From: Enterococcus phage fHoEfa03
Sequence record: PV296018.1
Direction: 5' to 3' (one strand)
Length of the DNA: 41,011 nt
Both the position numbers and the translations under genes were made by a program. Shown piece by piece: positions 3,486-34,233 of this stretch (position 1 is the stretch's first letter; each line of letters opens with the position of its first letter). The notes beneath the pieces were generated by a model. It saw nothing but the letters and a program-made list of their open reading frames with translations. It searched no databases and was not told where the DNA came from.

Positions 3486-3512
3486 AGTGCTTTAACTAGC
3501 ACTCTTTTTTCT
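3486..3512 (+). terminator. Intrinsic terminator after terL.
   Basis: agagtgct-ttaa-ctagcactct stem followed by TTTTTTCT. Confidence 0.6.
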
Positions 3513-3513
3513 A

Positions 3514-3717
3514 TTGTTTTGTGGTAAAATGGGGTATATAGGAGGGGTAAATATGCAAAATCCGGTATTGTTAGTAGTAATTTTCTACGTTTTAGGTATG
3601 CTATCACTAGTCACAGCAATGTTTTTCACTGGTTTAGTAGCTGGTTTAGTAGCCTTAGCAGTAGCATTATTAATTCCATCAGTAATCTTATACAAAGAAT
3701 TGGGAGAAGGTGAATAA
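3514..3717 (+). CDS. Small membrane protein (67 aa, two predicted TM helices).
   Basis: Hydrophobic segments LLVVIFYVLGMLSLVTAMFF and LVAGLVALAVALLIPSVIL. GGAGG RBS. Confidence 0.5.
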   Translation: MFCGKMGYIGGVNMQNPVLLVVIFYVLGMLSLVTAMFFTGLVAGLVALAVALLIPSVILYKELGEGE

Positions 3718-4873: not shown

Positions 4874-5423
4874 AATTAGACAACTACAACAGGTTGAAAC
4901 AGTAACAGACAATATTGTTGAAGGCTACGCTTTAAAGTTTGATTCACCTAGTGAAAACTTAGGTGGATTCATTGAGTTCATAGATAAGCGTGCATTAGAT
5001 GGTGTTGATATGAGTGACGTTCGTATGTTCGTTGACCATGATTCAAGTAAGTTATTAGGACGGACAAAGAGTGGAACATTAACATTAGAGGTTGACGACA
5101 TTGGGTTAAAATTTAGAGCATTACTTCCTGATACATCAGTAGGACGTGATGCAATGGAACTAGTTAAACGCGGTGACCTTAGTCAGTGTTCGTTTGGATT
5201 CACAGTTGCTAAAGATGAATGGCGCAAAGCTGATGGAATAAATCACAGAACTATCAAACAAATCAAGTCACTATTTGAAATCTCACTGGTTTCAATTCCA
5301 GCATATGCAGACACAGATGTTAGTGTGGCTAAACGTTCATTAGAACAAATGGAAGAGGAAGCAAAACAATTTCAAAAGCGTAAACTAGAATTAGAATTAA
5401 ACCTATTAGGGTTATACAAGTAA
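4836..5423 (+). CDS. Prohead maturation protease (HK97 / S78-family-like).
   Basis: ~190 aa gene between portal and capsid. The real start may be the GTG at 4860 behind an AAGGAG RBS. Confidence 0.7.
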   Translation: MKKKECQQVKNLEIRQLQQVETVTDNIVEGYALKFDSPSENLGGFIEFIDKRALDGVDMSDVRMFVDHDSSKLLGRTKSGTLTLEVDDIGLKFRALLPDTSVGRDAMELVKRGDLSQCSFGFTVAKDEWRKADGINHRTIKQIKSLFEISLVSIPAYADTDVSVAKRSLEQMEEEAKQFQKRKLELELNLLGLYK

Positions 5424-5474
5424 CACCCACAAGTTCCCTTGTTCGTGATATACTATCTTTAGTAAGAAAAATAA
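5423..5474 (+). promoter_or_regulatory. Late promoter: box ACACCCACAA, 13 nt, extended -10 TGaTATACT, conserved leader ATCTTTAGTAAGAAAAATAA.
   Basis: The same architecture is found at 8484-8535, 9232-9283 and in modified form at 18861-18892. Confidence 0.55.
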
Positions 5475-5492
5475 TATTAAAGGGGTGTGCGT

Positions 5493-6740
5493 ATGTCACG
5501 GCAAGAACTTATGGAACAAGCACAAACTTTATTATCAGAAGGTAAACTTGATGAAGCTGAAAAAGTAATGCAACAAATTAAAGCTTTAGATGAGGAAAAA
5601 CCTAAAGAAGAAGAACGTGCAGTTGATAATAAAGAAGAGGAGAAACCAGAGGAAGAACCTAAAGCAGAAGATGCTAAGGACGAACCAAAGGAAGAACCTA
5701 AAGAAGATAAGGAAGAAACAAAAGAAGAACGTTCAGCAAAAACTGAACAAGATTTTGAAGAACCTAAAGAGGAACCAAAGGAAGAACCTAAAACAGAAAA
5801 ACGCTCACTAGAGCAAAAAGGAGAAGAAAATATGGAGAAAGTTATTTTAGATGGAAAAGAAGTAGAAAATAAAGAAGTGCGTGGATTCTTAGAATACTTA
5901 CGCTCAAAAGAAACACGTGCATTGCCTGAATCATTTGAAGGTGTTAAGTCTGCGGATGCATCAGCAATTATCCCAGAAGAAATCATCACAAAAGCTAAAA
6001 TGTTACCTGAAACAGTTGTTGACTTACGTAATATGGTTACACGTCAAAAAGTAACAAATGCTATGGGTAAATATCCAATCTTGAAAGCTAATGAAGCCGT
6101 GTTGGCATCAGTTGAAGAACTTAAAAAGAACCCTGATTTAGAAGGACCAGCTTTCGAAGAAGTCAAATATGAAGTTGAAACTTACCGTGGTCAAATTGCA
6201 GTAGCAGAAGAAGCTTTACAAGATTCTGATGATGACTTATCTGGAATCATTGCACGTCACATTCAACGTCAAGGTTTGAACACAGCTAACAAAGCTATCG
6301 TTACTAAATTAAAAACAGCAACAGCAGTAGCAGCAACATCAATTGATGACTTGAAAACACAAGTTAACACTGGTTTTGACCCAGCTTACAACTTAGAGTT
6401 TATTGTTTCTCAATCATTCTTTAACGCTTTAGACCAAATGAAAGACGCTAACGGTCGTTACTTACTAGAAGATGACATCAAAGCACCATCTGGTAAATCT
6501 CTATTAGGACGTAAAGTAACTGTTTTAGCTGATAAATTAATTGGTACAGTAGACGGTGACAAAGTAGCATTCTTAGGACAACCTGATGCATTCGCAGTCT
6601 TCTTCGACCGCGTAGACACAACTGTACGTTGGGTTGAGCATCAATACTTCGGTCAAGTATTAGCAGTAGCTATGCGCTTTGACTGTGAAGTCGTTGATAA
6701 AAACGCTGGTAAATATATCACTTTAACACCAGCACCCTAG
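5493..6740 (+). CDS. Major capsid protein (HK97 fold) with an N-terminal scaffold-like acidic EPKE-repeat 'delta' domain.
   Basis: Low-complexity N-terminus (EEPKEEPKE repeats) followed by a ~300-aa capsid domain. Sits in the capsid position. The ATG at 5493 has RBS AAAGGGGTG. The gene ends CCC-TAG. Confidence 0.85.
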   Translation: MSRQELMEQAQTLLSEGKLDEAEKVMQQIKALDEEKPKEEERAVDNKEEEKPEEEPKAEDAKDEPKEEPKEDKEETKEERSAKTEQDFEEPKEEPKEEPKTEKRSLEQKGEENMEKVILDGKEVENKEVRGFLEYLRSKETRALPESFEGVKSADASAIIPEEIITKAKMLPETVVDLRNMVTRQKVTNAMGKYPILKANEAVLASVEELKKNPDLEGPAFEEVKYEVETYRGQIAVAEEALQDSDDDLSGIIARHIQRQGLNTANKAIVTKLKTATAVAATSIDDLKTQVNTGFDPAYNLEFIVSQSFFNALDQMKDANGRYLLEDDIKAPSGKSLLGRKVTVLADKLIGTVDGDKVAFLGQPDAFAVFFDRVDTTVRWVEHQYFGQVLAVAMRFDCEVVDKNAGKYITLTPAP

Positions 6741-6804
6741 TACGCCACCTGTGGTAGGACAGGTGACACCAGCTGAAACATCAGCAACAATTGAATTATC
6801 GTAA
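6735..6804 (+). other. Conserved 3' element with a candidate +1 recoding site CCC_UAG plus hairpins (cacctg/caggtg and gctga/tcagc). The +1 frame encodes STPPVVGQVTPAETSATIELS and stops at 6802-6804.
   Basis: 63 nt match 9119-9181, downstream of the major tail gene, at 62 of 63 positions. Confidence 0.5.
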
Positions 6805-8479: not shown

Positions 8480-8483
8480 GTGA

Positions 8484-8535
8484 CACCCTAAAACACGTTG
8501 ATTAATGATATAATTATTCTAGTAAGAAAATATAA
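8484..8535 (+). promoter_or_regulatory. Late promoter copy: ACACCCTAAA box, TGaTATAAT, leader TATTCTAGTAAGAAAATATAA.
   Basis: Aligns with 5423-5474 and 9232-9283. Confidence 0.5.
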
Positions 8536-8557: not shown

Positions 8558-9124
8558 ATGGCAGTAGTAGGTTTTAAGAAAGCTATTATCAGCGTACCTA
8601 AAGCAGAAGGTTCTGGCGTTGATAAATACACAATTGATAAAAGCGGTGGCGGTACTATTGAAGCGTCAATTCAAGGAATTTCAGCAGAACAAACAACCGT
8701 TTATGCGTCAAACGTTCCAATTTGGGTATCAGCTAAAGGGGTTGGAGAGTTAACAGCTTCATTAAACGTATTTGACTTGTATAAAGACAACGTTTATGAG
8801 AAAATTTTAGGTATTGAACGTGGTGAAGATGGTATTGCAATCGTTGGCGAAGATACAGAAGCACCTTACGTTTCAGCAGTATTTGTTGCAGACGGTGCAG
8901 ACGGTAAAGAAATGTACTTTGGTTTAGTTAAAGGACGTTTCAGCCACCCAGAAATCGCATTGAATACAACAGAATCTGGTGGTACAGAACCAAACACAGA
9001 AACAATTGAAGGTTCATTTGTAACAGATTCACGTGGCTTCGCATACATGAGTGCTGTTTCAAGCGAAACATTAACACTTGATAAGTTTGTTGACAAAGTA
9101 AACAATATTAATCCATTGCCCTAG
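8558..9124 (+). CDS. Major tail protein.
   Basis: 188 aa. Sits directly before the G / G-T chaperone and tape measure genes. The gene ends CCC-TAG. Confidence 0.8.
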   Translation: MAVVGFKKAIISVPKAEGSGVDKYTIDKSGGGTIEASIQGISAEQTTVYASNVPIWVSAKGVGELTASLNVFDLYKDNVYEKILGIERGEDGIAIVGEDTEAPYVSAVFVADGADGKEMYFGLVKGRFSHPEIALNTTESGGTEPNTETIEGSFVTDSRGFAYMSAVSSETLTLDKFVDKVNNINPLP

Positions 9125-9188
9125 TACGCCACCTGTGGTAGGACCGGTGACACCAGCTGAAACATCAGCAACAATTGAATTGACTTAG
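9119..9188 (+). other. Second copy of the conserved 3' recoding-like element (CCC_UAG plus hairpins). The +1 frame encodes STPPVVGPVTPAETSATIELT and stops at 9186-9188.
   Basis: Near-identical to 6735-6797, with one A/C difference. Confidence 0.5.
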
Positions 9189-9231: not shown

Positions 9232-9283
9232 ACACCCACAACCACTAGTGTTTATGCTATAATATCTTTAGTAAGAAAAATAA
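9232..9283 (+). promoter_or_regulatory. Late promoter copy: ACACCCACAA box, TGcTATAAT, leader ATCTTTAGTAAGAAAAATAA.
   Basis: Aligns with 5423-5474. Confidence 0.55.
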
Positions 9284-14252: not shown

Positions 14253-14283
14253 AGACAACCCCTTTACAAGGGTTGTCTTTTGT
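14253..14283 (+). terminator. Intrinsic terminator after the TMP.
   Basis: agacaaccc-ctttacaa-gggttgtct stem followed by TTTGTG. An extended -10 TGtTATAAT follows at 14283-14291. Confidence 0.65.
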
Positions 14284-14317
14284 GTTATAATACTAGTATA
14301 GTAAATTATAAAGGAGA

Positions 14318-16410: not shown

Positions 16411-18765
16411 ATGGATTTTTATATTACAGACCGTGAGTTCAGACTAGAAACAGTTATAAGTACAGACGGTGATACATTATTCAAAGTAATTTCTGCACAG
16501 GACGTTTCCACGCTTGAAACGTCCTCGCGTAGAATGTCAATGGATATTAGCTTCACACCAGAAACAACAGGATTGGCAAAAGACTTTTTCAAGGTAGGTA
16601 ACTACGTTTTATACATTGACCTTAATGGTAAACATGAGTGGATGACCATTTTAAAATCAACACACAATCCACTTACACAGATTAGAACATTAGAATGTGA
16701 AGATGCTGGACTAGACTTATTAAATGAAACAGTAAGTGACTACAAAGCAGACAAAGCATATAATGTTGCGCATTACATTGAACGCTTTACGTATGACAGT
16801 GGTTTCAAGATTGGTGTAAATGAAATTTCAAAACTAACACGCAAACTTGAATGGGAAGGTGAAGCAACAGCATTAGAGCGTATCCAATCAGTTGCAACAC
16901 AATTTGACAATGCAGAAATAGAGTTTAGATTTGAATTTATTGGAAACCAACTAAGTCAACCTTATATTGATATTAAGAAAAAACGTGGTACAACTGATTT
17001 TCACAGAATGTTTGTGAATAAAGACATTCATTCAATTGTAGTTGAAGAAGATATATACCAACTTGTGAATGCTATCTATGCAACAGGTGGTACAGAAGAA
17101 GGTAAGGACCAACCAATTAACTTAAAAGGGTATAACTGGAAAGACCCAGAAGGTCGCTTTGTGTTGAATAAGACAGATGGTATCATACGTGATACACAGA
17201 ACATCAAACAATGGTCAAGAGATAATACTAACTCACATTACTTCTTACAACACAAGCAGTGGGAAACAACAAACAAGAATACACTTATAAACAACGTGGT
17301 TTCACACCTTAAAAAGTACAGTCAACCAGTGACAAATTACATTGTTGACATTGCCAATATTCCAGACATGTTACAAGTAGGTGATACTGTTGAATTAGTT
17401 GATGAAAACGAAAAACTATATCTTAGTTCACGTGTTCAAGAATTGACATTTAACTATGAATCAAACAGTTGTGAAGCGGTATTATCTGATTTCGTGCGTT
17501 TAGAATCTGGAATTGCTGAACAATTAAGAGAGATACAAATTAATCTAAATAATAAAACAGAACAAATGTTCAATAGTGTACCGCAAGTATTTGTACAGCC
17601 AGAACAACCAGAAGCACCAAAGGAAAACGATATATGGTGGGTTCAACAAAGCATAGAATATAGAGATATGACAACAGAGGGTGAACTAGTTAGAGTTGAT
17701 ACAGGAGAAGTAATGGTATCAGCCTACAAGGTGTTTAAAGATGGTCAGTGGCAAGACCAGACAATTGACCAGTCTATCCTAAACATTGAAACATTGAACG
17801 CTGTTAAAATCAATAGTTCAACAATCAATGGGTCTAAGTTTATCAATACTTGGAATACTAAGGAAAATATAGATGGTGGGATTGTTCGTAGACAAGGAGT
17901 TAATACCGTTGGTGAAGGTGAGATACTACAAGATAATGACACCTATATTATACCAACTGGTTCAACAATTGAAAAACTGCGGTCAGAAGAAACAACACTA
18001 ATTAAGTATGGTGAAATACTTAATACAATTAATAAGTATGATAACGCAACAGGTACAAAGATAGAAAGAAAAGCCAACGGGTTAATATCAGCAAACAGAG
18101 TGTACCTAAATGAACTTGATTATACTGTGGCAAACGTTGAAACAAACCAACAGGTAACACTAGAACCTAGAGGTCTTAGCTTTGTAACAACAACCAAGGA
18201 AGGTAGCAACCCAGCAGTATTGACAGGAACCACAGAGCTTACAGGCGGTCTAATAAAAGTTAATGGTCACAGCCCAAATATTTCAGCATGGGGCGAAGGT
18301 ACAAACATTACTAACGCAAAGAGTGGTAATCTATTCAAGTTTGGAAATCTGGTTGCACTTGGTTTTAATACTGACATTAAAGCATTAAACGGACTAGTTC
18401 AGAAGAATCAGGCTAATGACGCATTCCAAGCACAGCGTGACGCAAAAATTAAGTTTCAAGCAACAGTTCTATTTCAAGGTGATAATGCTAGCACATCATC
18501 AGACTATGCCTATTGTAAAATGCAAGTAAAAGATACCTACAATGAATTAAAGTCAACCAGTGGTGGTGTTTTGATAGCTTCAGCAATTGGTACTGGTACA
18601 CAAGACGCAATCAAACTTCAGTGGCTTGGTACTGCAACAGTTGTAATTGATGTGAAAGCTGGTCAATGGTTTGGTTGCGTACTAGAATTACGAGCAAGTA
18701 GAAATAATCTGTTTGCAATGCGTTTAGTAAACGTACAGATAGAAGAATTATTCCCAGTTGCATAA
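16411..18765 (+). CDS. Tail-associated lysin / tail tip protein (Tal), probably also the receptor-binding component.
   Basis: 784 aa. N-terminal MDFYITDREFRLETVISTDGDTLF region typical of the Tal N-terminal structural domain. No separate RBP gene lies before the lysis cassette. Confidence 0.65.
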   Translation: MDFYITDREFRLETVISTDGDTLFKVISAQDVSTLETSSRRMSMDISFTPETTGLAKDFFKVGNYVLYIDLNGKHEWMTILKSTHNPLTQIRTLECEDAGLDLLNETVSDYKADKAYNVAHYIERFTYDSGFKIGVNEISKLTRKLEWEGEATALERIQSVATQFDNAEIEFRFEFIGNQLSQPYIDIKKKRGTTDFHRMFVNKDIHSIVVEEDIYQLVNAIYATGGTEEGKDQPINLKGYNWKDPEGRFVLNKTDGIIRDTQNIKQWSRDNTNSHYFLQHKQWETTNKNTLINNVVSHLKKYSQPVTNYIVDIANIPDMLQVGDTVELVDENEKLYLSSRVQELTFNYESNSCEAVLSDFVRLESGIAEQLREIQINLNNKTEQMFNSVPQVFVQPEQPEAPKENDIWWVQQSIEYRDMTTEGELVRVDTGEVMVSAYKVFKDGQWQDQTIDQSILNIETLNAVKINSSTINGSKFINTWNTKENIDGGIVRRQGVNTVGEGEILQDNDTYIIPTGSTIEKLRSEETTLIKYGEILNTINKYDNATGTKIERKANGLISANRVYLNELDYTVANVETNQQVTLEPRGLSFVTTTKEGSNPAVLTGTTELTGGLIKVNGHSPNISAWGEGTNITNAKSGNLFKFGNLVALGFNTDIKALNGLVQKNQANDAFQAQRDAKIKFQATVLFQGDNASTSSDYAYCKMQVKDTYNELKSTSGGVLIASAIGTGTQDAIKLQWLGTATVVIDVKAGQWFGCVLELRASRNNLFAMRLVNVQIEELFPVA

Positions 18766-18770
18766 TATAA

Positions 18771-18798
18771 AACACCTCTTTTCAGGGGTGTTTTTATT
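18771..18798 (+). terminator. Intrinsic terminator after tal.
   Basis: aacacctcttttcaggggtgttttt. Confidence 0.6.
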
Positions 18799-18860
18799 TG
18801 CTTTTAAATGGATAATCACCCACATTGGCGACTGAAAAACGCTTAGAATGCTCCTATGAA
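18785..18860. repeat. 76-nt direct repeat copy A (terminator tail, TTTATTTGCTTTTAAATGGATAATCACC, then CGCTTAGAATGCTCCTATGAA) upstream of the lysis cassette.
   Basis: ~80% identical to 20558-20633 downstream of the endolysin. Confidence 0.6.
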
Positions 18861-18892
18861 GCACACCATTTCCCCTATTTAAGTGATATACT
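18861..18892 (+). promoter_or_regulatory. Late promoter variant (GCACACCATTT box, then TGATATACTATAAT) in front of the lysis genes.
   Basis: Aligns with the capsid promoter acacccacaagttcccttgttcgTGATATACTAT. Confidence 0.45.
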
Positions 18893-18943
18893 ATAATAGT
18901 AGCTGAAAGGCGGTGGTTTACTATAAAATAAGGAGATGCTAAC

Positions 18944-19189
18944 ATGGAAGAAAAGGACTTTATGGAAATAAAAGTACAACTGGCAAGAATTGAATCAAGC
19001 TTAGAAGGTATTCCAGAATTGAAAAATGAGTTAAAGGCTAACAATCATTTACTAAGTGAAACACATCACCGTTCAATTCAAAATGAGAAAGACATTGCTA
19101 GTATAAATGACCGCTTGAAATGGTTATCACGTACTGTAGGTAGCGCAATTATTGTAGCTGTCATTGGTGCGATTATTACATTATTATAA
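18944..19189 (+). CDS. XhlA-like lysis-associated membrane protein (coiled-coil N-terminus, single C-terminal TM).
   Basis: 81 aa. C-terminal WLSRTVGSAIIVAVIGAIITLL. First gene of the lysis cassette. Confidence 0.5.
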   Translation: MEEKDFMEIKVQLARIESSLEGIPELKNELKANNHLLSETHHRSIQNEKDIASINDRLKWLSRTVGSAIIVAVIGAIITLL

Positions 19190-19203
19190 GGAGAGTGTAA
19201 AAG

Positions 19204-19437
19204 ATGGATTGGAAAACACGTATCAAAAACAAAGCCTTCTGGATTGCTTTAATTCCAGCGGTAATTGTTCTGATTCAAGTTGTGGGTAACATTTTTGGAT
19301 TGGACTTATCAAACCTAACTGGTTTGAGCCAACAACTAATTGACGTTGTTAATGCGGTATTCGTTGTGTTAAGTATTTTAGGAGTAGTTATAGACCCAAC
19401 CACAAAAGGTATTAAAGACAATAAGGAGGATAAATAA
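19204..19437 (+). CDS. Holin (two TM helices).
   Basis: 77 aa. Two hydrophobic helices and a charged C-terminus (KDNKEDK). Immediately upstream of the endolysin. Confidence 0.65.
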   Translation: MDWKTRIKNKAFWIALIPAVIVLIQVVGNIFGLDLSNLTGLSQQLIDVVNAVFVVLSILGVVIDPTTKGIKDNKEDK

Positions 19438-19439
19438 GT

Positions 19440-20537
19440 ATGAAATTAAAAGGTATTTTATTTGGTGCATTAGCAACCATTGGTTTGTTTGCTGGAATGC
19501 AAACAGCTAACGCATATGAAGTTAATAACGAGTTTAATTTAAGCCCTTGGGAAGGTTCAGGACAGGTTGCAGTACCTAATAAGATTATCTTACATGAAAC
19601 TGCTAACGAACGTGCCACAGGACGAAATGAAGCAACGTACATGAAAAACAACTGGTTTAATGCTCATACAACAGCTATCGTTGGTGATGGTGGTATTGTT
19701 TATAAGATTGCACCAGAAGGTAACATCTCATGGGGAGCTGGTAATGCAAACCCATACGCACCTATTCAAATTGAGTTGCAACATACACATGATAAGGAAT
19801 TGTTCAAAAAGAACTATAAAGCATACATTGATTATACAAGGGACATGGGTAAAAAGTTTGGTATTCCTATGACACTTGACCAAGGTTCTTCTGTTTGGGA
19901 AAAAGGTGTTATATCTCATAAATGGGTATCAGATTATGTCTGGGGAGACCACACAGACCCATATGGTTACTTAGCAGAAATGGGAATCAGTAAAGCGCAA
20001 CTTGCTAAAGACTTAGCTAATGGGCTATCTGGTGAATCAGTAAAACCAACACCAAGCAAACCAAAGACATTCAAAAAAGGACAAAACGTTTACATTTATA
20101 ACGGTCACAAATCACACAATGGACCAGTGGTACCATTCGTAGCTGGTGCAAGTCTTTGGACCCAAGTTGGTACAATTACAGAAGTGAAACAAGGTACAGT
20201 CAATCCGTATAAGATTGAAAACACTGGTAAATTTGTAACATATGCTAACGCTGGCGACTTAGAGGACCTTAACACTAAGTTCCCGCCAAAACCAAGTAAA
20301 CCAGTTAATCAGTTTACAATTGGTGTTGACGCTATTGTTTTACGTAGTGGACGACCAAGCGTATATGCCCCAGTATACGGAACATGGAAACAAGGTGCAG
20401 TATTCAAGTATGATGAAATAACAGTTGGTGACGGTTATGTATGGATTGGTGGAACAGACACTAATGGTACACGTATTTACTTACCAATTGGACCAAATGA
20501 CGGAGACCCAAACAACACGTGGGGCACATTAGTATAA
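19440..20537 (+). CDS. Endolysin: N-acetylmuramoyl-L-alanine amidase (Amidase_2 / PGRP-type) with an N-terminal signal peptide and two C-terminal SH3b-type cell-wall-binding repeats.
   Basis: MKLKGILFGALATIGLFAGMQTANA is a Sec-type signal peptide. Amidase_2-like core ILHETANERATGRNEATYMKNNW...GAGNANPYAPIQIELQH. Two ~65-aa repeats follow. Confidence 0.8.
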   Translation: MKLKGILFGALATIGLFAGMQTANAYEVNNEFNLSPWEGSGQVAVPNKIILHETANERATGRNEATYMKNNWFNAHTTAIVGDGGIVYKIAPEGNISWGAGNANPYAPIQIELQHTHDKELFKKNYKAYIDYTRDMGKKFGIPMTLDQGSSVWEKGVISHKWVSDYVWGDHTDPYGYLAEMGISKAQLAKDLANGLSGESVKPTPSKPKTFKKGQNVYIYNGHKSHNGPVVPFVAGASLWTQVGTITEVKQGTVNPYKIENTGKFVTYANAGDLEDLNTKFPPKPSKPVNQFTIGVDAIVLRSGRPSVYAPVYGTWKQGAVFKYDEITVGDGYVWIGGTDTNGTRIYLPIGPNDGDPNNTWGTLV

Positions 20538-20540
20538 AAC

Positions 20541-20573
20541 AAAAAGACACCCTATATGGGGTGTCTTTATTTG
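20541..20573. terminator. Bidirectional-looking intrinsic terminator between the late and early operons (agacaccc-tatatg-gggtgtct, A-run before, T-run after).
   Basis: Perfect 8-bp stem. Located at the convergence of the + late and - early transcription units. Confidence 0.65.
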
Positions 20574-20633
20574 CGTTTTAATGTATAATCACCTTACTTT
20601 GAATCTGAAACGCGCTTAGAATGCTCCTATGAA
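20558..20633. repeat. 76-nt direct repeat copy B (terminator tail, TTTATTTGCGTTTTAATGTATAATCACC, then CGCTTAGAATGCTCCTATGAA). Overlaps the 3' end of the nrdH-like gene.
   Basis: See copy A at 18785-18860. Confidence 0.6.
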
Positions 20634-20854
20634 ACAATGGTTTCTAAGATATTTGGAGCATATCCGCCAATTACAACAGGTTCATCATCTTTGAAAACCA
20701 CTGGTAAGGAACGCAATCCGCATTTCATTAGATATTCTAGTGCTGCTAAATCTTCATCTACATTAATTTCTTTATAGTTAACTCCTAACTGTTGTAGTTT
20801 ACGTTTTGTAAAACTACAAGATGCACAATTGTTTTTAGTATACACTGTAATCAT
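20627..20854 (-). CDS. NrdH-like glutaredoxin.
   Basis: 75 aa with a CxxC motif (YTKNNCASCSFTKRKL) in a thioredoxin-fold context. Confidence 0.6.
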   Translation of the reverse strand: MITVYTKNNCASCSFTKRKLQQLGVNYKEINVDEDLAALEYLMKCGLRSLPVVFKDDEPVVIGGYAPNILETIVS

Positions 20855-20865
20855 TTTAATTCCTC

Positions 20866-21396
20866 CTATTTATATTTAAATGAATATCCTTTATGTGTTT
20901 TTTGTTTACCAGCTAAACATAAGGATATTGATGATACTGACAACTCAAGCTCGTTAGCGCATTCTGTCATTGATTTAAATTCATAAGTCTTTTTATTTGA
21001 TATACAAAATATACCTATATTACGGTTACCCTGATTTGAATACTGCTCTTTATAGGTAGCCCACCTTAAGTTTTCAACTCTGTTATCAAATCTATCCCTG
21101 TTTATATGGTCTACTGTAGGTTTGTTTTCTGGGTTTGGTATGAATGCTTCTGCTACTAAGCGGTGTAAATATTCAATACGCTTTACATTGTTATATAATG
21201 TTATTTTCTTGTAACCATTTGCTACCTTACCGCTTAGTTCTTTTAACTTTAATAACTGTCCTTTCCTATTTAACCTAGGTAAGGAAAAAACCCTACCTAG
21301 GGATGTTATTACATAGTTACCATTAATAACATATTCTTCGTTAGTCAATGTAATTTTTGACATTAAGTTTTCTATATCCAAGTTTTTCTCTTTCAT
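20866..21396 (-). CDS. Free-standing HNH homing endonuclease (paralog of 492-1001 and 29649-30182).
   Basis: HRLVAEAFIPNPENKPTVDHINRDRFDNRVENLRWATYKEQ core. The longest ORF (to 21435) overlaps the polymerase 3' end, so the true start is probably the internal Met (21396 or 21363). Confidence 0.75.
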   Translation of the reverse strand: MKEKNLDIENLMSKITLTNEEYVINGNYVITSLGRVFSLPRLNRKGQLLKLKELSGKVANGYKKITLYNNVKRIEYLHRLVAEAFIPNPENKPTVDHINRDRFDNRVENLRWATYKEQYSNQGNRNIGIFCISNKKTYEFKSMTECANELELSVSSISLCLAGKQKTHKGYSFKYK

Positions 21397-23632
21397 GATG
21401 TGCTTGTTCAACCCTTTCTTTGTAGTTTTCACCAAACCAAAGGACTAACGTGTCTTCTACCTGGTCAATATAGTATTGTTTGTCAATTTCATCAATGGTA
21501 ATACCTTCACCAATTGCTTCATTACTGATTGTGTAGTATTCTGGAGCGTTTGCCAATCCTTTTGTATATGAAATATTATCCTTAAATTCATCAGCTTCAA
21601 TATCTAATAATTGACCTTCTTTGACCTTAAACAATTCTACTGCATTAGTTTTGTCTTTTACTGCGAATACGCGGTTAACCTTTTGAGCATTGGTTTCATT
21701 ACCTTCAATGTCCCTTTTAATTGTTTTATCATAACTCCAGCCAGTTTTGGTAATAATTTGAAACTGTCTTACATCTTCACATTCTTCAATAAATTCTTTG
21801 TAGTCTTTACCAGCCACCAAATAGTTGATAAATGCATTTGAAACAACTGCTTTTGAAACTTTTAATCCACCAGTTAAACCAATAGCACCTTTAATTTTAA
21901 CCTTCCCATTTGGTTGTACTGCAATGTAGTTATTTACATCTTTTTGCCAAATTTCACGGAACATATCCTTATCTAATGTTAGCCCAATCTTGTTAGCAAA
22001 TTCATCTAATGCTTCATCAATAGCTTTATCATCTGCTTCACTGTTTGGAATATATGCGTGTGCGTCCGTATTTGATTGAATGAATTGTGCTTTACCTTTA
22101 ATTAATTCAAACATGTTTGTCATAATCAACTGACCTGTTGCACAAACCAAGAATTGGTTTCTTGGGTCATATAAACCATTAAACTGCGCACCACTGGCAC
22201 CAAACTTAGTGTTAAGCGGTAACTTGATACCGTTAATCATTACCCAAGTTGGTACCTTTACGCCTTTAATATCTGCTGTTTCTTCACCTGAATACTTAGC
22301 ATCCATGCGTTGTTTAAGTAAGTCACTATAGCGGTGAAGTTTATCTTTTGGAATGTTTCTTGATAGTAGGTTGAACTGAACCATTGTATTTGGATATAGT
22401 GAACCCCAGTCACGCATTGGGAATAATCCAATATGAATATAGCTAGGTACCGCACCGTGTACACCACCACTACCATAGACCATTTCATAACCATCTTCAG
22501 TAGTGTAGTTTAGTGACACGTTTAGTTTGCCTTTTTCGTTTAATTCAAATTCATGATTGAGATATGCGTCTGCAATCTCTTTTGTATTAATGTTTAATCG
22601 TTTATCTAACTCTAATGGGTCTGTCAAGTCTGGTCTAACTTCTTGTTTTGTTGCACCAAGTAACTTAGCTGTTAAGTTAGCATTGGTTTGTAATAAGTCT
22701 GTCTTATCCATGTCAAACATTAAAGCAATAGTTGCTTTAGCTAACAACATACTTATGTTTTGTTCAAAACGTTTTTCAGTTGCTAATACATCATTTTTAC
22801 AGTATGCAATGTTTTTCGCTTTTTCTTCCTCTGTCAATGGTCTATCCATATCAAAGTCTACTTCTGTTTCTTTAATGTTGATGCCTAAGAATGCTGAATG
22901 TTCTTTTAAGCTAAAACCTTTGTTATCTTGATATAGGTCCATACCAAAAAGTGGTGTTTTATGACTATCAAACATTTTGTAAACTAGACCTCTATTATCT
23001 GATTCAATAATTGCCTTAGACATCTGATAAGCATTTTTGCCTTGTAGATACCCACGCATTACATTGTTGTCATATGACGCATTATTATACCCAATAAACA
23101 TTGAATCACGGTATTCAAGGTAAAACTTGCGTAATTCGTCAAGGTTGTTATTAATGATAAACCATTCTTTGGTAAAGTAATCACGAAATACAAATAAACT
23201 GTCATGTTTAAAAATCTCAATATCAAATAATAAAATGGTTTGCTTTGTTAATGGTTCACTTGGTTTAAATGGTACAACATTACCACTTGAAATACTTCTG
23301 ATTGGTTTTACTGTAGCAAAACCATTACTGAACTTCAAATCAATCAATAAACGGTCACCAACTTCAACATTTTTCCATTTATCCCAGTCATATTTGCGAA
23401 ACTTCATGATATAGCTTGTAACGTCCCTACCATCTTCTAATGAACGCATTTTAACTACCTTCATTTCTTTTCCTTTTGCTGATAACTTTTTGGTAGATTC
23501 AATGACAACCACATCATGTTGACCAGCTCGCATAGGGTCAAGACTTCGTGAATTACCTTTTAGCTTACTGAATACTTCCAATAGTTTTTCAGCTAGTTTT
23601 GGTGCTTCTTTAAATTCTGCAATATTTTTCAT
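21341..23632 (-). CDS. Family B DNA polymerase.
   Basis: Exo I LLFDIEIF (DxE). Exo III-like YCKNDV. Motif A DWGSLYPNTM (DxxSLYPS). Motif B-like KFGASGAQFNGLY. Motif C-like SNTDAH. Confidence 0.8.
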   Translation of the reverse strand: MKNIAEFKEAPKLAEKLLEVFSKLKGNSRSLDPMRAGQHDVVVIESTKKLSAKGKEMKVVKMRSLEDGRDVTSYIMKFRKYDWDKWKNVEVGDRLLIDLKFSNGFATVKPIRSISSGNVVPFKPSEPLTKQTILLFDIEIFKHDSLFVFRDYFTKEWFIINNNLDELRKFYLEYRDSMFIGYNNASYDNNVMRGYLQGKNAYQMSKAIIESDNRGLVYKMFDSHKTPLFGMDLYQDNKGFSLKEHSAFLGINIKETEVDFDMDRPLTEEEKAKNIAYCKNDVLATEKRFEQNISMLLAKATIALMFDMDKTDLLQTNANLTAKLLGATKQEVRPDLTDPLELDKRLNINTKEIADAYLNHEFELNEKGKLNVSLNYTTEDGYEMVYGSGGVHGAVPSYIHIGLFPMRDWGSLYPNTMVQFNLLSRNIPKDKLHRYSDLLKQRMDAKYSGEETADIKGVKVPTWVMINGIKLPLNTKFGASGAQFNGLYDPRNQFLVCATGQLIMTNMFELIKGKAQFIQSNTDAHAYIPNSEADDKAIDEALDEFANKIGLTLDKDMFREIWQKDVNNYIAVQPNGKVKIKGAIGLTGGLKVSKAVVSNAFINYLVAGKDYKEFIEECEDVRQFQIITKTGWSYDKTIKRDIEGNETNAQKVNRVFAVKDKTNAVELFKVKEGQLLDIEADEFKDNISYTKGLANAPEYYTISNEAIGEGITIDEIDKQYYIDQVEDTLVLWFGENYKERVEQAHHEREKLGYRKLNVKNYID

Positions 23633-27589: not shown

Positions 27590-28072
27590 TTATAACCCTC
27601 TTTCTATAATCTTGTACAACTCATCCTCAAATATCTTATATACATGTATTCTGTTAGAAAAGAATTTCTTAGCTTTCCCAAAGTGATAGCTAGCATCATG
27701 CATATTATTAAATCTATATACCTTAAAATCTCTTTTATCCAATATGATTAGTGGTCTATGTCTACCAAGAGTTAGGTTATTATCCCAAGCATGTTTACAG
27801 TTTTCTTTAGCTGTAACCCACTCAAGATTGGGAACCCTGTTATTTGATTTATTAGCATCAATATGGTTTACTTGTGGTTTGTTTTCTGGATTTGGAATGA
27901 ATAGTTTAGCTACTATTCTGTGGACTTTTTCTGGGTGTGAGTTTACTGTAACTATGCGATAACCATCTTTATCTAGGTGACCCTTGTGTAATCCTTTTTG
28001 TTTCGTTATAACTAATCCTGATGGTGATACCTTTATATTATCATAGTCTACAAAATTATTGTTTTCTACCAT
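27590..28072 (-). CDS. Free-standing HNH homing endonuclease.
   Basis: HRIVAKLFIPNPENKPQVNHIDANKSNNRVPNLEWVTAKEN core, near-identical to the copy at 492-1001. Confidence 0.75.
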   Translation of the reverse strand: MVENNNFVDYDNIKVSPSGLVITKQKGLHKGHLDKDGYRIVTVNSHPEKVHRIVAKLFIPNPENKPQVNHIDANKSNNRVPNLEWVTAKENCKHAWDNNLTLGRHRPLIILDKRDFKVYRFNNMHDASYHFGKAKKFFSNRIHVYKIFEDELYKIIERGL

Positions 28073-28974: not shown

Positions 28975-29668
28975 ATGTGCGTTTCAGTTCTGTACTGTCA
29001 AGTGGTGGATTACATCCTATCTGGTTAGTATATTGCGCCCACACCCATACTTCTTCATGTTCTAAGCCTGTAGCAAACAATTTGCCAATCATTTGCGTTA
29101 TCCAGTTGTTTCGTCCTCCTTCATCACTTCCAGCGATAATATCACCTAACAGGTTTGCAGTCCATTTGCGTTCACGTTTTTTGTTTTGCTTTTGAATTGT
29201 TTTATCTGTAAAAATATCAAACCATTTCTCTGGTAGGTCTGCAATTGGTGAATTGTCAATCACTTCATATTTTACACCATCAATTGTTGAACCCCACCCT
29301 AAAACATATCTACCACTACACTGAAAGTCAACACCTTCAAGCTCCTTATGGTTTTGAATGAATTGCACATCATTATATTTTTCAGGTAGCTTGTAATACA
29401 TATGAAGTCCACCACTTGGTGTCATAACTGTTTTAGTGTCTGGTAATTCAATATCATACTTTTCGCAAAACTCTTTCAGGTTATCAGCACCACTAATACC
29501 ATTATGAGTGTCAATATCAATCACTACTACCCCATTTAATGAACCAGTTAGGTACCCCCAGTTACCACCTTCTTTTATCCATTCACGAACAACATTTTCA
29601 TTCTCTCCATTAAATGAACCTGCCACTAAAGGTGCTTTACCATTCTTTTTAATTCTCAATACTTTCAA
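28925..29668 (-). CDS. Primase-polymerase (PrimPol, bifunctional DNA primase/polymerase N-terminal-type) domain protein.
   Basis: VVIDIDTHNGISG places the DxD metal-binding motif in the PrimPol context. Confidence 0.55.
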   Translation of the reverse strand: MKVLRIKKNGKAPLVAGSFNGENENVVREWIKEGGNWGYLTGSLNGVVVIDIDTHNGISGADNLKEFCEKYDIELPDTKTVMTPSGGLHMYYKLPEKYNDVQFIQNHKELEGVDFQCSGRYVLGWGSTIDGVKYEVIDNSPIADLPEKWFDIFTDKTIQKQNKKRERKWTANLLGDIIAGSDEGGRNNWITQMIGKLFATGLEHEEVWVWAQYTNQIGCNPPLDSTELKRTYDSVKKREERRMAKDE

Positions 29669-30182
29669 ATTTAAAACCTCCTGCTGATTTGTTTATATAT
29701 TTATCCGAAATCACTTTACTTATTGTTCCTTCATCTATATTTAGTGTGTTACTTGCTTCTCGTATACTACTATAATATACTTCCTTACCTTCTTTGTCAA
29801 TAGATTTTATTTTCTTTTTTAAACCAGTTGCTTTTTTATTAACTTGTTGCTCTGCATATGTTGCCCACCTTAAGTTTTCAACTCTGTTATCAAATCTATC
29901 TCTGTTCACATGGTCTACTGTAGGCTTTTTTTCTGGGTTTGGTATGAATGCTTCTGCTACTAATCGGTGGACTGAATATGTTTTTGTATATCCGTTATTA
30001 TCACTAAGTCTTACACAATTATATTCAAACCCTCTTTTACCTCTTTTTTGATTTTTTAGTATAGTTTCTTTGGTTTCTAATAGACCAGTGTTACATCTAA
30101 CTATTCTTGCTTTTGACTTAATTCTACCAAAGTTTGATATTTTATATTTATTAAGATTATTCAGTTCTCTCCATTCTTCCAT
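29649..30182 (-). CDS. Free-standing HNH homing endonuclease.
   Basis: MEEWRELNNLNKYKISNFGRIKS N-terminus. HRLVAEAFIPNPEKKPTVDHVNRDRFDNRVENLRWATYAEQ core. Confidence 0.8.
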   Translation of the reverse strand: MEEWRELNNLNKYKISNFGRIKSKARIVRCNTGLLETKETILKNQKRGKRGFEYNCVRLSDNNGYTKTYSVHRLVAEAFIPNPEKKPTVDHVNRDRFDNRVENLRWATYAEQQVNKKATGLKKKIKSIDKEGKEVYYSSIREASNTLNIDEGTISKVISDKYINKSAGGFKFESIEN

Positions 30183-33680: not shown

Positions 33681-33709
33681 CTCATATCCTCCTTTTAATT
33701 TATGAATTA

Positions 33710-33738
33710 AGTATATCAGTTGGGGCTGAACTTGTCAA
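33710..33738 (-). promoter_or_regulatory. Early promoter TTGACA-N17-TATACT with CATAAGTTAAGAGGAGG leader (copy 1 of a tandemly duplicated cassette).
   Basis: Identical copy at 33973-34001. Confidence 0.5.
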
Positions 33739-33752
33739 CCCCTTTTCTGATT

Positions 33753-33941
33753 TTATTTTAAGTTTTCTAATACTGTTTCAGTTAGTAAAATCACATCTAA
33801 CATGTTTTCTAGTCTGTCGTTTAGTTCATGTCCTAGTTCTTTGTTTCCGTTGTCGTATGCTTCAATCATTTGCGCTTTTAACTCGTCATATCTTTTATTT
33901 AGTCTTTCTAATTTCGCTTCATATCTTTGTTTTGTTGTCAT
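33753..33941 (-). CDS. Hypothetical 62-aa coiled-coil protein (paralog A).
   Basis: ~70% identical to 34016-34204. The C-terminal 24 aa (RLNDRLENMLDVILLTETVLENLK) match 23 of 24. Confidence 0.55.
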   Translation of the reverse strand: MTTKQRYEAKLERLNKRYDELKAQMIEAYDNGNKELGHELNDRLENMLDVILLTETVLENLK

Positions 33942-33972
33942 GTTTTTTTTCCTCCTCTTAACTTATGAATTA

Positions 33973-34001
33973 AGTATATCAGTTGGGGCTGAACTTGTCA
34001 A
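33973..34001 (-). promoter_or_regulatory. Early promoter TTGACA-N17-TATACT (copy 2 of the tandem cassette).
   Basis: See 33710-33738. Confidence 0.5.
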
Positions 34002-34015
34002 CCCCTTTTCTGATT

Positions 34016-34204
34016 TTATTTTAAGTTTTCTAATACTGTTTCAGTTAGTAAAATCACATCTAACATGTTTTCTAGTCTGTCGTTTAATCTATGTCCTTTT
34101 TCGTTATCTCCTTTGTCGTATGCTTCAATCATTTCAGCTTTTAATTTGTCAAATCTTTCGTTTAATTTTTGTAATTTGTTTTCGTATTTTTCTTTAGTTG
34201 TCAT
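34016..34204 (-). CDS. Hypothetical 62-aa coiled-coil protein (paralog B).
   Basis: Tandem paralog of 33753-33941. Confidence 0.55.
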   Translation of the reverse strand: MTTKEKYENKLQKLNERFDKLKAEMIEAYDKGDNEKGHRLNDRLENMLDVILLTETVLENLK

Positions 34205-34233
34205 TGTTTAATTCCTCCCTTAACTTATGAACT

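Follow-up and report, generated by a model that had tools for sequence, protein, structure and literature searches.

A two-copy terminator and bipartite core bracketing the lysis genes of Enterococcus phage fHoEfa03 and related phages

The DNA of Enterococcus phage fHoEfa03 considered here (sequence record PV296018.1; 41,011 nucleotides, hereafter the window) represents essentially the whole genome, of 41 kb, of an Efquatrovirus-type Enterococcus siphophage. Its plus strand holds the packaging, structural, and lysis genes up to position 20537, and its minus strand the replication and early genes from 20627 to approximately 39400. Where both blocks meet, the lysis cassette is bracketed by two copies of a direct repeat, designated copy A and copy B, each composed of an intrinsic terminator followed by a bipartite core (Table 1). 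The repeat region is therefore the last late transcription unit together with the point where late and early transcription converge. The segment 18000–21500 is 98.9% identical to phage EF-M80 and 99.5% to vB_EfaS_AL3, and a search with it retrieved 107 related records, every one of them from an Enterococcus phage. Both copies were gathered from 41 related loci, which correspond to 35 distinct A/B combinations (70 copy sequences) and constitute the comparative set used throughout. No publication describing the repeat was found in the literature searched.

The original prediction, made from the letters of the window, described a 76-nt direct repeat of about 80% identity around the lysis genes, in which both copies begin inside an intrinsic terminator, copy A continues into a variant of the late promoter, and copy B overlaps the 3' end of an nrdH-like gene. 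All four observations hold. The segments 18785–18860 and 20558–20633 are identical at 62 of 76 positions (81.6%), and the similarity extends without gaps to 95 nt at 77% identity (18769–18863 and 20542–20636). Each copy opens with a hairpin and a T-run (folding z-score of about −5 for both), and copy B reaches 7–10 nt into the nrdH-like open reading frame (ORF). The promoter that follows copy A belongs to a late family with the pattern ACACCC-N20-TATAMT, also found on the plus strand at 5423, 8483, and 9232 (spans 5423–5470, 8483–8530, and 9232–9279), whose members hold TATACT or TATAAT with a preceding TG, and then a conserved start region, TCTTTAGTAAGAAAA. In relatives, the terminator stems differ in sequence yet still pair (CACCTCT/AGAGGTG, ACACCC/GGGTGT, AACCCTC/GAGGGTT, and CCACTGG/CCAGTGG), a compensatory pattern, and the terminator of copy B is the place where late (plus-strand) and early (minus-strand) transcription meet.

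Table 1. Features of the repeat and of the genes around it, in window coordinates.
Feature	Position	Strand	Basis and remarks
Tail protein gene (Tal/minor tail protein)	16411–18765	+	ORF; minor tail protein in EF-M80, LM99, and others; its terminator opens copy A
Copy A intrinsic terminator (hairpin and T-run)	18769–18794	+	−12.7 kcal/mol, z −5.0; rho-independent terminator in the LM99 and Max annotations
Copy A AT-rich tract TATTTGCTTTTAAA, then box 1 TGGATAATCACC	18795–18820 (box 1 18809–18820)	+	Sequence comparison
Copy A spacer, exactly 20 nt, type 1 CACATTGGCGACTGAAAAAC	18821–18840	+	Length invariant in all copies examined
Copy A box 2 GCTTAGAAT and last shared bases GCTCCTATGAAGCA	18841–18863 (box 2 18841–18849; TAGAAT 18844–18849)	+	Sequence comparison
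Late-type lysis promoter	18862–18897	+	CACACC box and extended −10 TGATATACT (18884–18892); outside the repeat; conserved in all relatives
Lysis cassette	18944–20537	+	XhlA-like 18944–19189, holin 19204–19437, endolysin 19440–20537; ORFs and relatives' annotations
Copy B bidirectional intrinsic terminator	20543–20568	both	−16.7 kcal/mol on +, −15.0 on −; annotated on both strands in LM99 and Max
Copy B AT-rich tract, then box 1 TGTATAATCACC	20569–20593 (box 1 20582–20593)	+	Sequence comparison
Copy B spacer, 20 nt, type 2 TTACTTTGAATCTGAAACGC	20594–20613	+	Sequence comparison
Copy B box 2 GCTTAGAAT and GCTCCTATGAAACA	20614–20636 (TAGAAT 20617–20622)	+	Overlaps the nrdH stop codon, 20627–20629 (−)
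NrdH/glutaredoxin-like gene	20627–20854	−	ORF; NrdH-redoxin or glutaredoxin in relatives; last gene of the early/replication operon

Terminators and T-rich tracts resemble each other in AT-rich genomes, and the two copies might accordingly be alike by chance. This possibility is practically negligible, as the local alignment of A with B scores 87 against 14.5 ± 2.2 for shuffled sequences (z = 33), and the copies are conserved in more than 100 genomes. Without the terminators, 55 of 69 positions are still identical, 26 standard deviations above shuffles, when the best other 69-mer match anywhere in the genome reaches 35/69. Furthermore, the 21-mer CGCTTAGAATGCTCCTATGAA occurs exactly twice (18840–18860 and 20613–20633), for an expectation of 0 in shuffles. 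The two boxes of the repeat, GCTTAGAAT and ATAATCACC, when searched with one mismatch, are found elsewhere in the genome at chance frequency only. Other readings of the region were discarded. An apparent extension of the homology to the lysis promoter and to the coding part of nrdH, past the 21-mer (TATTT..ATATAC, noticed by eye), gives alignment scores no higher than those of shuffles in four phages. The 46-aa plus-strand ORF at 20637–20777 has a start codon that is not kept in relatives, and the tiny minus-strand coding sequences (CDSs) over copy A in Ef212 have neither frame nor stop conserved.

Downstream of the terminator, each copy holds a unit of approximately 65 nt, read on the plus strand, which comprises an AT-rich tract (general pattern TTTATTTGC.TTT.AA), box 1 (TG-N-ATAATCACC), a 20-nt spacer, box 2 (GCTTAGAAT), and about 14 shared bases with the tail pattern nnTCCT.TGAA.CA. 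Box 2 is identical in all 70 sequences, save for a single G-to-T change that converts TAGAAT into TATAAT. Only this box is invariant across relatives, so that the 21-mer described as invariant in the original prediction deserves that name within this genome and not beyond it; the 8–10 bases after GCTTAGAAT vary (GCTTAGAATCGTCCTGTGAA, CGTCCTGTG, CCTCCTATG, and GCGTGTATG), with a purine 7 nt past TAGAAT in nearly all copies. Box 1 is nearly invariant among B copies and degenerate in five of the 35 A copies. The distance between CACC and GCTT is exactly 20 nt in every copy, including those of the dArtagnan-like phages, a different genus-level group, while the sequence of the spacer drifts: two main types occur in Efquatrovirus and other types in the dArtagnan-like phages, with about 45% identity between lineages. 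The homology between A and B ends 14–16 nt past TAGAAT in both lineages, and none is significant beyond 18863. The rigid distance that two conserved blocks keep over a spacer that drifts suggests that the core is recognised as DNA, and an invariant box 2 with fixed spacing beside a diverged spacer argues for selection rather than for a decaying scar. Both copies are thus very probably functional elements maintained by selection.

All 35 Efquatrovirus combinations hold both copies in the same order and the same orientation, and a profile search of the window and of the complete Alamo genome found exactly two copies per genome. The same XhlA–holin–endolysin cassette lies between them in the 35 distinct Efquatrovirus genomes and in the dArtagnan-like phages. 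The latter have their own spacers, and both of their copies carry the lineage-specific GCTCGTGAGAGACAC after TAGAAT, the Efquatrovirus counterpart being GCTCCTATGAA. Other features are specific of the position and hold across both groups, namely, after box 1, CACCCAC at A and CACCTT at B. This indicates that A and B are old paralogues rather than recent copies, and that both have been maintained. More distant phages with homologous holin and endolysin genes, L049 and L068, hold copy B only, and L050 just a remnant of it. The position of copy A is occupied in L049 and L050 by a plain terminator and a TGTGGTATAAT module, and in L068 by the late promoter alone. Copy B is consequently present in Efquatrovirus, the dArtagnan-like phages, L068, and L049, and copy A in the first two only, which suggests, from few lineages and no rooted tree, that copy B is probably ancestral and copy A a later duplicate.

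Both copies lie directly 3' of hypervariable segments, at the borders of mosaic blocks. Mean pairwise identity is 0.63 in the last 300 nt of the tail gene and 0.85 in the adjoining copy A; for the 3' end of the endolysin gene it is 0.76, with a bimodal distribution and two wall-binding alleles, and 0.88 in the adjoining copy B. These endolysin alleles, of 365 and approximately 328 aa, share an N-terminal amidase domain and differ in the C-terminal part, and their 3' breakpoint falls at copy B. In EF-M80, the endolysin annotation is split into two CDSs, a split that suggests a frameshift or an error in the sequence. Sequence has also moved between the copies of single genomes. Copy B of EF-M80 is identical at 76 of 76 nt to copy A of the window, as expected from a conversion of B by A, and copy A of L024 holds the terminator of B, the nine bases upstream of it, and the B core, pointing to a conversion in the opposite direction. 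Copy A of TexasRanger has the terminator type otherwise found at B in Max and SHEF5, and patch conversion is also seen in L017 and L021. These are individual events. Concerted evolution of A and B across the genus was ruled out by a permutation test, because identity between A and B is 0.796 within genomes and 0.792 between genomes (p = 0.23); the mean identities among A copies and among B copies are 0.82 and 0.91, respectively.

The original prediction had offered a footprint of modular exchange as one of two explanations. In a linker or scar version of this view, an exchange of modules, or a Campbell-type insertion of the cassette, duplicated the junction, and the copies would serve only as homology for shuffling. 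The mosaic borders, the patches swapped between copies, and the junction of copy A with the lysis promoter, where discordant genome pairs reach their maximum (85 of 561), speak for it. There is also a precedent in T4-type myoviruses, whose promoter-early stem-loops (PeSLs; Arbiol et al. 2010, PMC2839356; Comeau et al. 2014, PMC4122927) are repeats composed of a terminator and a promoter through which modules are shuffled. However, a neutral scar would decay evenly, and here box 2 and the spacing are fixed beside a spacer that has fallen to about 45% identity; moreover, no overall concerted evolution is seen, and the A- and B-specific features kept across genera point to an old duplication with both copies maintained. 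The search for alternative lysis cassettes that this explanation called for found none between the copies in the relatives examined. Crossing-over between direct repeats would in fact remove essential lysis genes, and the relatives with homologous lysis genes and one copy or none do not fit a Campbell-type scar. Modular exchange is therefore an improbable main explanation, although the mosaic borders and inter-copy patches that it accounts for are real. Gene conversion and exchange at the edges of the copies would, in the preferred explanation, be a by-product of the element.

Relatives of the core were looked for outside these phages by scanning public collections with the pattern TAATCACC-N20-GCTTAGAAT. 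Among viral contigs, the scan returned the expected phages and small streptococcal contigs; among genomes, it returned 43 matches, about the number expected by chance. These were ranked with a phage-derived matrix scored only on the columns that the pattern leaves unspecified. Enterococcus pallens, Paenisporosarcina, six streptococcal loci of the S. mitis/oralis group, and two metagenome-assembled genomes of Bacilli score from −2 to −49. The 33 background matches, and hence most of the 43, score from −58 to −112 and are attributed to chance. When a 73-nt streptococcal core was compared by BLAST with 50,697 phage records, it matched 42 "Streptococcus satellite phage Javan" records and 20 Efquatrovirus phages, with E-values down to 0.01–0.05 and 80–83% identity over 46–50 nt. 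The only other match listed, to two Clostridioides phage phiC2 records, is weak and partial (E = 2).

In the streptococcal satellites, the core is single-copy, is oriented against the flanking genes, and lies in a conserved non-coding block of approximately 175 nt, which has variable segments on both sides and is located upstream of an operon with a VapE-type primase (L129, that is, Javan744, at 5613–5934; L087 at 6175–6561; and L053, L063, L075, L082, L083, L095, L107, L115, L117, and L122). About 90 nt away and in the same orientation, TGATATAAT is followed by a hairpin-terminated unit of approximately 75 nt, with weak Rfam matches to Spy779816 and to plasmid counter-transcribed RNAs (E 0.02–0.9). 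Nested helices can be drawn in the block in the direction of the genes, and they accommodate the U-G to C-G and A-U to G-U changes of L087. A CDS with a TTG start that covers the satellite core was rejected as coding, its frame and stop not being conserved. A tblastn search for a DNA-binding protein common to the phage and the streptococcal satellites gave only a capsid homologue: the phage major capsid protein (gene at 5487–6740) is 30–34% identical over about 186 aa to a capsid-family protein of L063, L075, L083, and L122 (E down to 2e-30), from which it follows that these satellites encode their own capsid of a related type. The best-scoring relative outside phages is a chromosomal locus of E. 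pallens (L101, 4622–4658), where the reverse complement of box 1 (AGGTGATTA) is the Shine-Dalgarno sequence of a 101-aa ORF, and that of box 2 falls within the last codons of the upstream ORF.

The two copies are best explained, tentatively and at somewhat less than even odds, as a duplicated cis-regulatory cassette formed by a factor-independent terminator and an element of about 65 bp read on the plus strand. TAGAAT in box 2 would serve as a −10 element, with box 1 centred near −41.5, and the element would bind RNA polymerase, probably with a phage or host factor in place of the −35 contact. Copy A would end the structural operon and provide the lysis genes with an additional promoter or regulator site, approximately 40 bp upstream of their late promoter. 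From copy B, transcription would begin near the nrdH stop codon and run antisense to nrdH and the replication genes, which could amount to late antisense transcription. As a secondary effect, both copies would act as homology patches for conversion and for the exchange of the tail-fibre 3' end and the endolysin wall-binding domain. A duplicated regulatory unit whose second copy points antisense was the other explanation of the original prediction, and it is favoured by the bipartite core with fixed spacing, the invariant TAGAAT, and the end of the homology about 14 nt after it. TAGAAT matches the −10 consensus at five of six positions, and its single variant is TATAAT; in addition, there is an AT-rich tract upstream. 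If the start lies 7 nt downstream of the −10, the homology would end at about +8, and the AT-rich tract would span from about −61 to −46.

Several observations, however, weigh against a promoter. A scan with the sigma-70 consensus called no canonical promoter at either core. The best −35 candidates at 16–18 bp, TTACTT and CACATT, match the consensus at two of six positions, and the TG beside box 1 is misplaced by one base, so that no TG extension is properly positioned. No plus-strand terminator was called 3' of copy B, and the rationale for a putative antisense promoter into an essential early operon comes from analogy alone. Ten early ORFs searched against Pfam and PHROGs for a sigma factor or activator gave none, and no helix-turn-helix; they encode HNH endonucleases, a nucleotide kinase, and proteins of unknown function. 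Box 2 is lost at copy B in L050 and EF36P1, and the decay of box 1 in five A copies implies that the full bipartite element is not required at A. The core relatives of the streptococcal satellites and of E. pallens run opposite to the local genes, an arrangement that agrees no less well with a protein site indifferent to orientation, or with a minus-strand RNA. Finally, a literature search found no publication mapping transcripts of the genus.

Other signals were compared with the core. The patterns of sigma-54, sigma-H, the ComX cin-box, extracytoplasmic function sigma factors, and cre, as well as those of the DnaA box, the Cheo box, CIRCE, the NrdR box, and the SPO1 late promoter, were compared by eye, and none is in register. 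Elsewhere on the plus strand, a terminator is followed within a few bases by a canonical extended −10 at 1690–1737, 3487–3530, and 14262–14290 (TGTGCTATAAT, TGTGGTAAAAT, and TGTGTTATAAT). This layout thus recurs in the genome, and, together with its presence at the A position of relatives devoid of copy A (L049 and L050), it speaks for the cassette explanation. The minus strand of the early region holds near-consensus TTGACA-17-TATAGT promoter repeats at approximately 30403, 34213, and 37252.

A second explanation reads the core as its reverse complement, in RNA from the minus strand. Copy B would then be part of the 3' untranslated region (UTR) of the early operon, placed before the terminator, with an effect on stability, processing, or a 3'-derived small RNA, and copy A would be a second module that stops early transcription reading through. 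The position of copy B, the likely ancestral one, in the nrdH 3' UTR is consistent with this, as are the satellite and E. pallens relatives, which are sense to the local genes when reverse-complemented. Small stems read from the sequences pair only on the minus strand, through G-U pairs (UGGGU/AUCCA around GAUU, and GUGCUU/AAGCGU), and terminator A, which in many relatives has A and T runs at its sides, could be bidirectional. However, the 67-nt post-terminator core folds on this strand no better than shuffles (z −1.3 for A and +1.0 for B; the four values over both copies and both strands are −0.3, −1.1, −1.3, and +1.0). Many B copies lack the candidate stems, and no covariation links the N of box 1 to its partner. 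Furthermore, no minus-strand promoter is evident upstream of copy A, and a G-U pair of terminator A on the plus strand becomes a C-A mismatch on the minus strand in this genome. Nor does Rfam match the core: over 18000–21500, with an E-value threshold, it reported a single family, GcvB, which lies over the terminator and whose 20.9 bits fall short of the gathering score, and on the loci with core relatives it reported nothing. A known RNA family or a structured RNA in the core is not supported by this result, the folding z-scores, and the unmaintained stems, and the explanation as a whole is considered unlikely.

Boxes 1 and 2 could also be operator sites, bound in either orientation by a phage or host protein, with both copies cooperating through looping or insulation. 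Such a pair would keep the lysis cassette silent until late, or mark its borders. This proposal agrees with the bipartite motif, whose ATAAT and AGAAT are a constant distance of about three helical turns apart, and with the presence of exactly two sites per genome around one functional unit. The bases after TAGAAT change jointly in A and B by lineage (GCTCCTATGAA or GCTCGTGAGAGACAC), as expected if a lineage-specific protein reads both sites, and box 1 of the satellites is a near-perfect 16-bp palindrome, GTGGGTAATCACCCAC. On the other hand, the ten early ORFs include no candidate DNA-binding protein, and the phage and the satellites share no protein save the capsid homologue. Pairing is not essential, because several related phages hold copy B alone, and the distance between copies depends on the endolysin allele (approximately 1773 bp or 1650–1659 bp). 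Paired operators are for these reasons as improbable as a recombination scar, and the duplicated terminator with a promoter-like element remains the preferred explanation.

The layout of the repeat is reminiscent of several known systems. Like PeSLs, it is a small cassette that joins a terminator stem-loop to a promoter—here, a promoter-like element—with an AT-rich upstream tract; its copies are direct repeats around gene modules, conserved islands amid variable sequence, and substrates for homologous exchange with each other. However, PeSLs have strong consensus sigma-70 early promoters, whereas this element has no −35 and its promoter part is putative. PeSLs are found in dozens of copies in hyperplastic regions, where they flank dispensable ORFans that are gained and lost, in contrast to the two copies that surround an essential and always present lysis cassette. 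In addition, one copy here points antisense. No deletion, insertion, or circular product was seen in the loci compared, with no search aimed at such products, and deletions or mini-circles of the cassette would be lethal if fixed. The element thus resembles a PeSL in layout and as a recombination patch, but it is not a member of that class.

Conserved linker or boundary sequences between modules belong to the modular theory of phage evolution, as known from lambdoid and dairy phages. Such inter-module linkers are discussed in PMC2839356. The copies are similar to them in being short conserved non-coding islands at module borders with clustered mosaic breakpoints, but those linkers are normally orthologous between phages, and this is a paralogous pair with a structured motif that is selectively maintained. 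A different parallel is provided by convergent phage operons that have an antisense promoter at the 3' end, as with Po of lambda, the source of the oop RNA opposite cII, and with sar of P22; the transcripts of oop and sar, which are short and terminated, have been demonstrated. The putative −10 of copy B (TAGAAT, 20617–20622) likewise lies just past the stop codon of the last gene and points back into the operon, although, unlike oop and sar, copy B has no plus-strand terminator called 3' of it, and its transcript is a prediction. Within this genome, the closest layout is that of the modules with a terminator and an extended −10 (1700–1737, 3487–3530, 14262–14290, and the copy-A position of L049 and L050), and the module at about 1715 also has the T-run motif TTTTTATTTG. 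Beyond the T-run, however, those modules have only a canonical TGTGnTATAAT, placed a few bases further on, whereas the repeat holds a displaced TG, the extra CACC, the 20-bp spacer, and the invariant GCTTAGAAT.

Some other features of the genome were observed during this work. Between nrdH and the gene for DNA polymerase, there is an HNH homing-endonuclease gene (20866–21435); some relatives keep it, and in others it is absent or replaced by a Mom-like protein or by small ORFs. Similarity to the window stops at the edge of this gene, at 20875, in several relatives. The three HNH genes (20866–21435, 27590–28072, and 29649–30182) carry a common 122-nt repeat, at 21044, 27801, and 29848, and the early region holds a 263-nt tandem duplication of 88% identity at 33687–34212. 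The major capsid (5487–6740) and major tail (8558–9124) genes both end in CCCTAG, followed by the same stretch of about 60 nt with the hairpin CACCTGT..ACAGGTG, the shared gene-end segments spanning 6694–6797 and 9078–9181. Reading in +1 after CCC yields the same 21-aa extension, save for the variable residues, STPPVVG(Q/P)VTPAETSATIEL(S/T), at both gene ends, which from sequence look like a common programmed +1 frameshift site. A programmed +1 frameshift of a comparable kind is known in Listeria phage PSA.

Efquatrovirus counts among the groups of Enterococcus phages that are most frequently isolated for therapeutic use, and the repeat bears on the use of these phages in several ways. Both copies adjoin the most variable determinants of host specificity, the tail-fibre 3' end and the endolysin wall-binding domain, and therefore may be homology arms for host-range swaps, a role that would matter for engineering and for predicting recombinants in phage cocktails. 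As direct repeats, they also make deletion of the lysis cassette inherently possible, which concerns the genome stability of production stocks, and the perfect 76-nt match of the EF-M80 repeat is relevant to this risk. That streptococcal satellite prophages carry the core as well hints at an undescribed regulatory signal of wider distribution. A more ambitious proposal, to which only a small probability is assigned, is that a core of about 55 bp (TAATCACC-N20-GCTTAGAAT, followed by nnTC.T....CAC) defines a new cis-element family of lytic Enterococcus siphophages and of satellites of S. mitis, S. pneumoniae, S. oralis, and S. parasanguinis that resemble phage-inducible chromosomal islands, with other members in Bacilli, all read by one conserved factor. 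If so, this reader would be RNA polymerase assisted by a regulator of phage type, or a host protein found in Lactobacillales, and satellites and phages would share a switch. In the phages, the core would then time the lysis genes and the late shut-off of the early operon by antisense transcription. Independently of this family, the two-copy element around the lysis genes is a candidate for the control of lysis timing and for the late antisense silencing of the replication operon.

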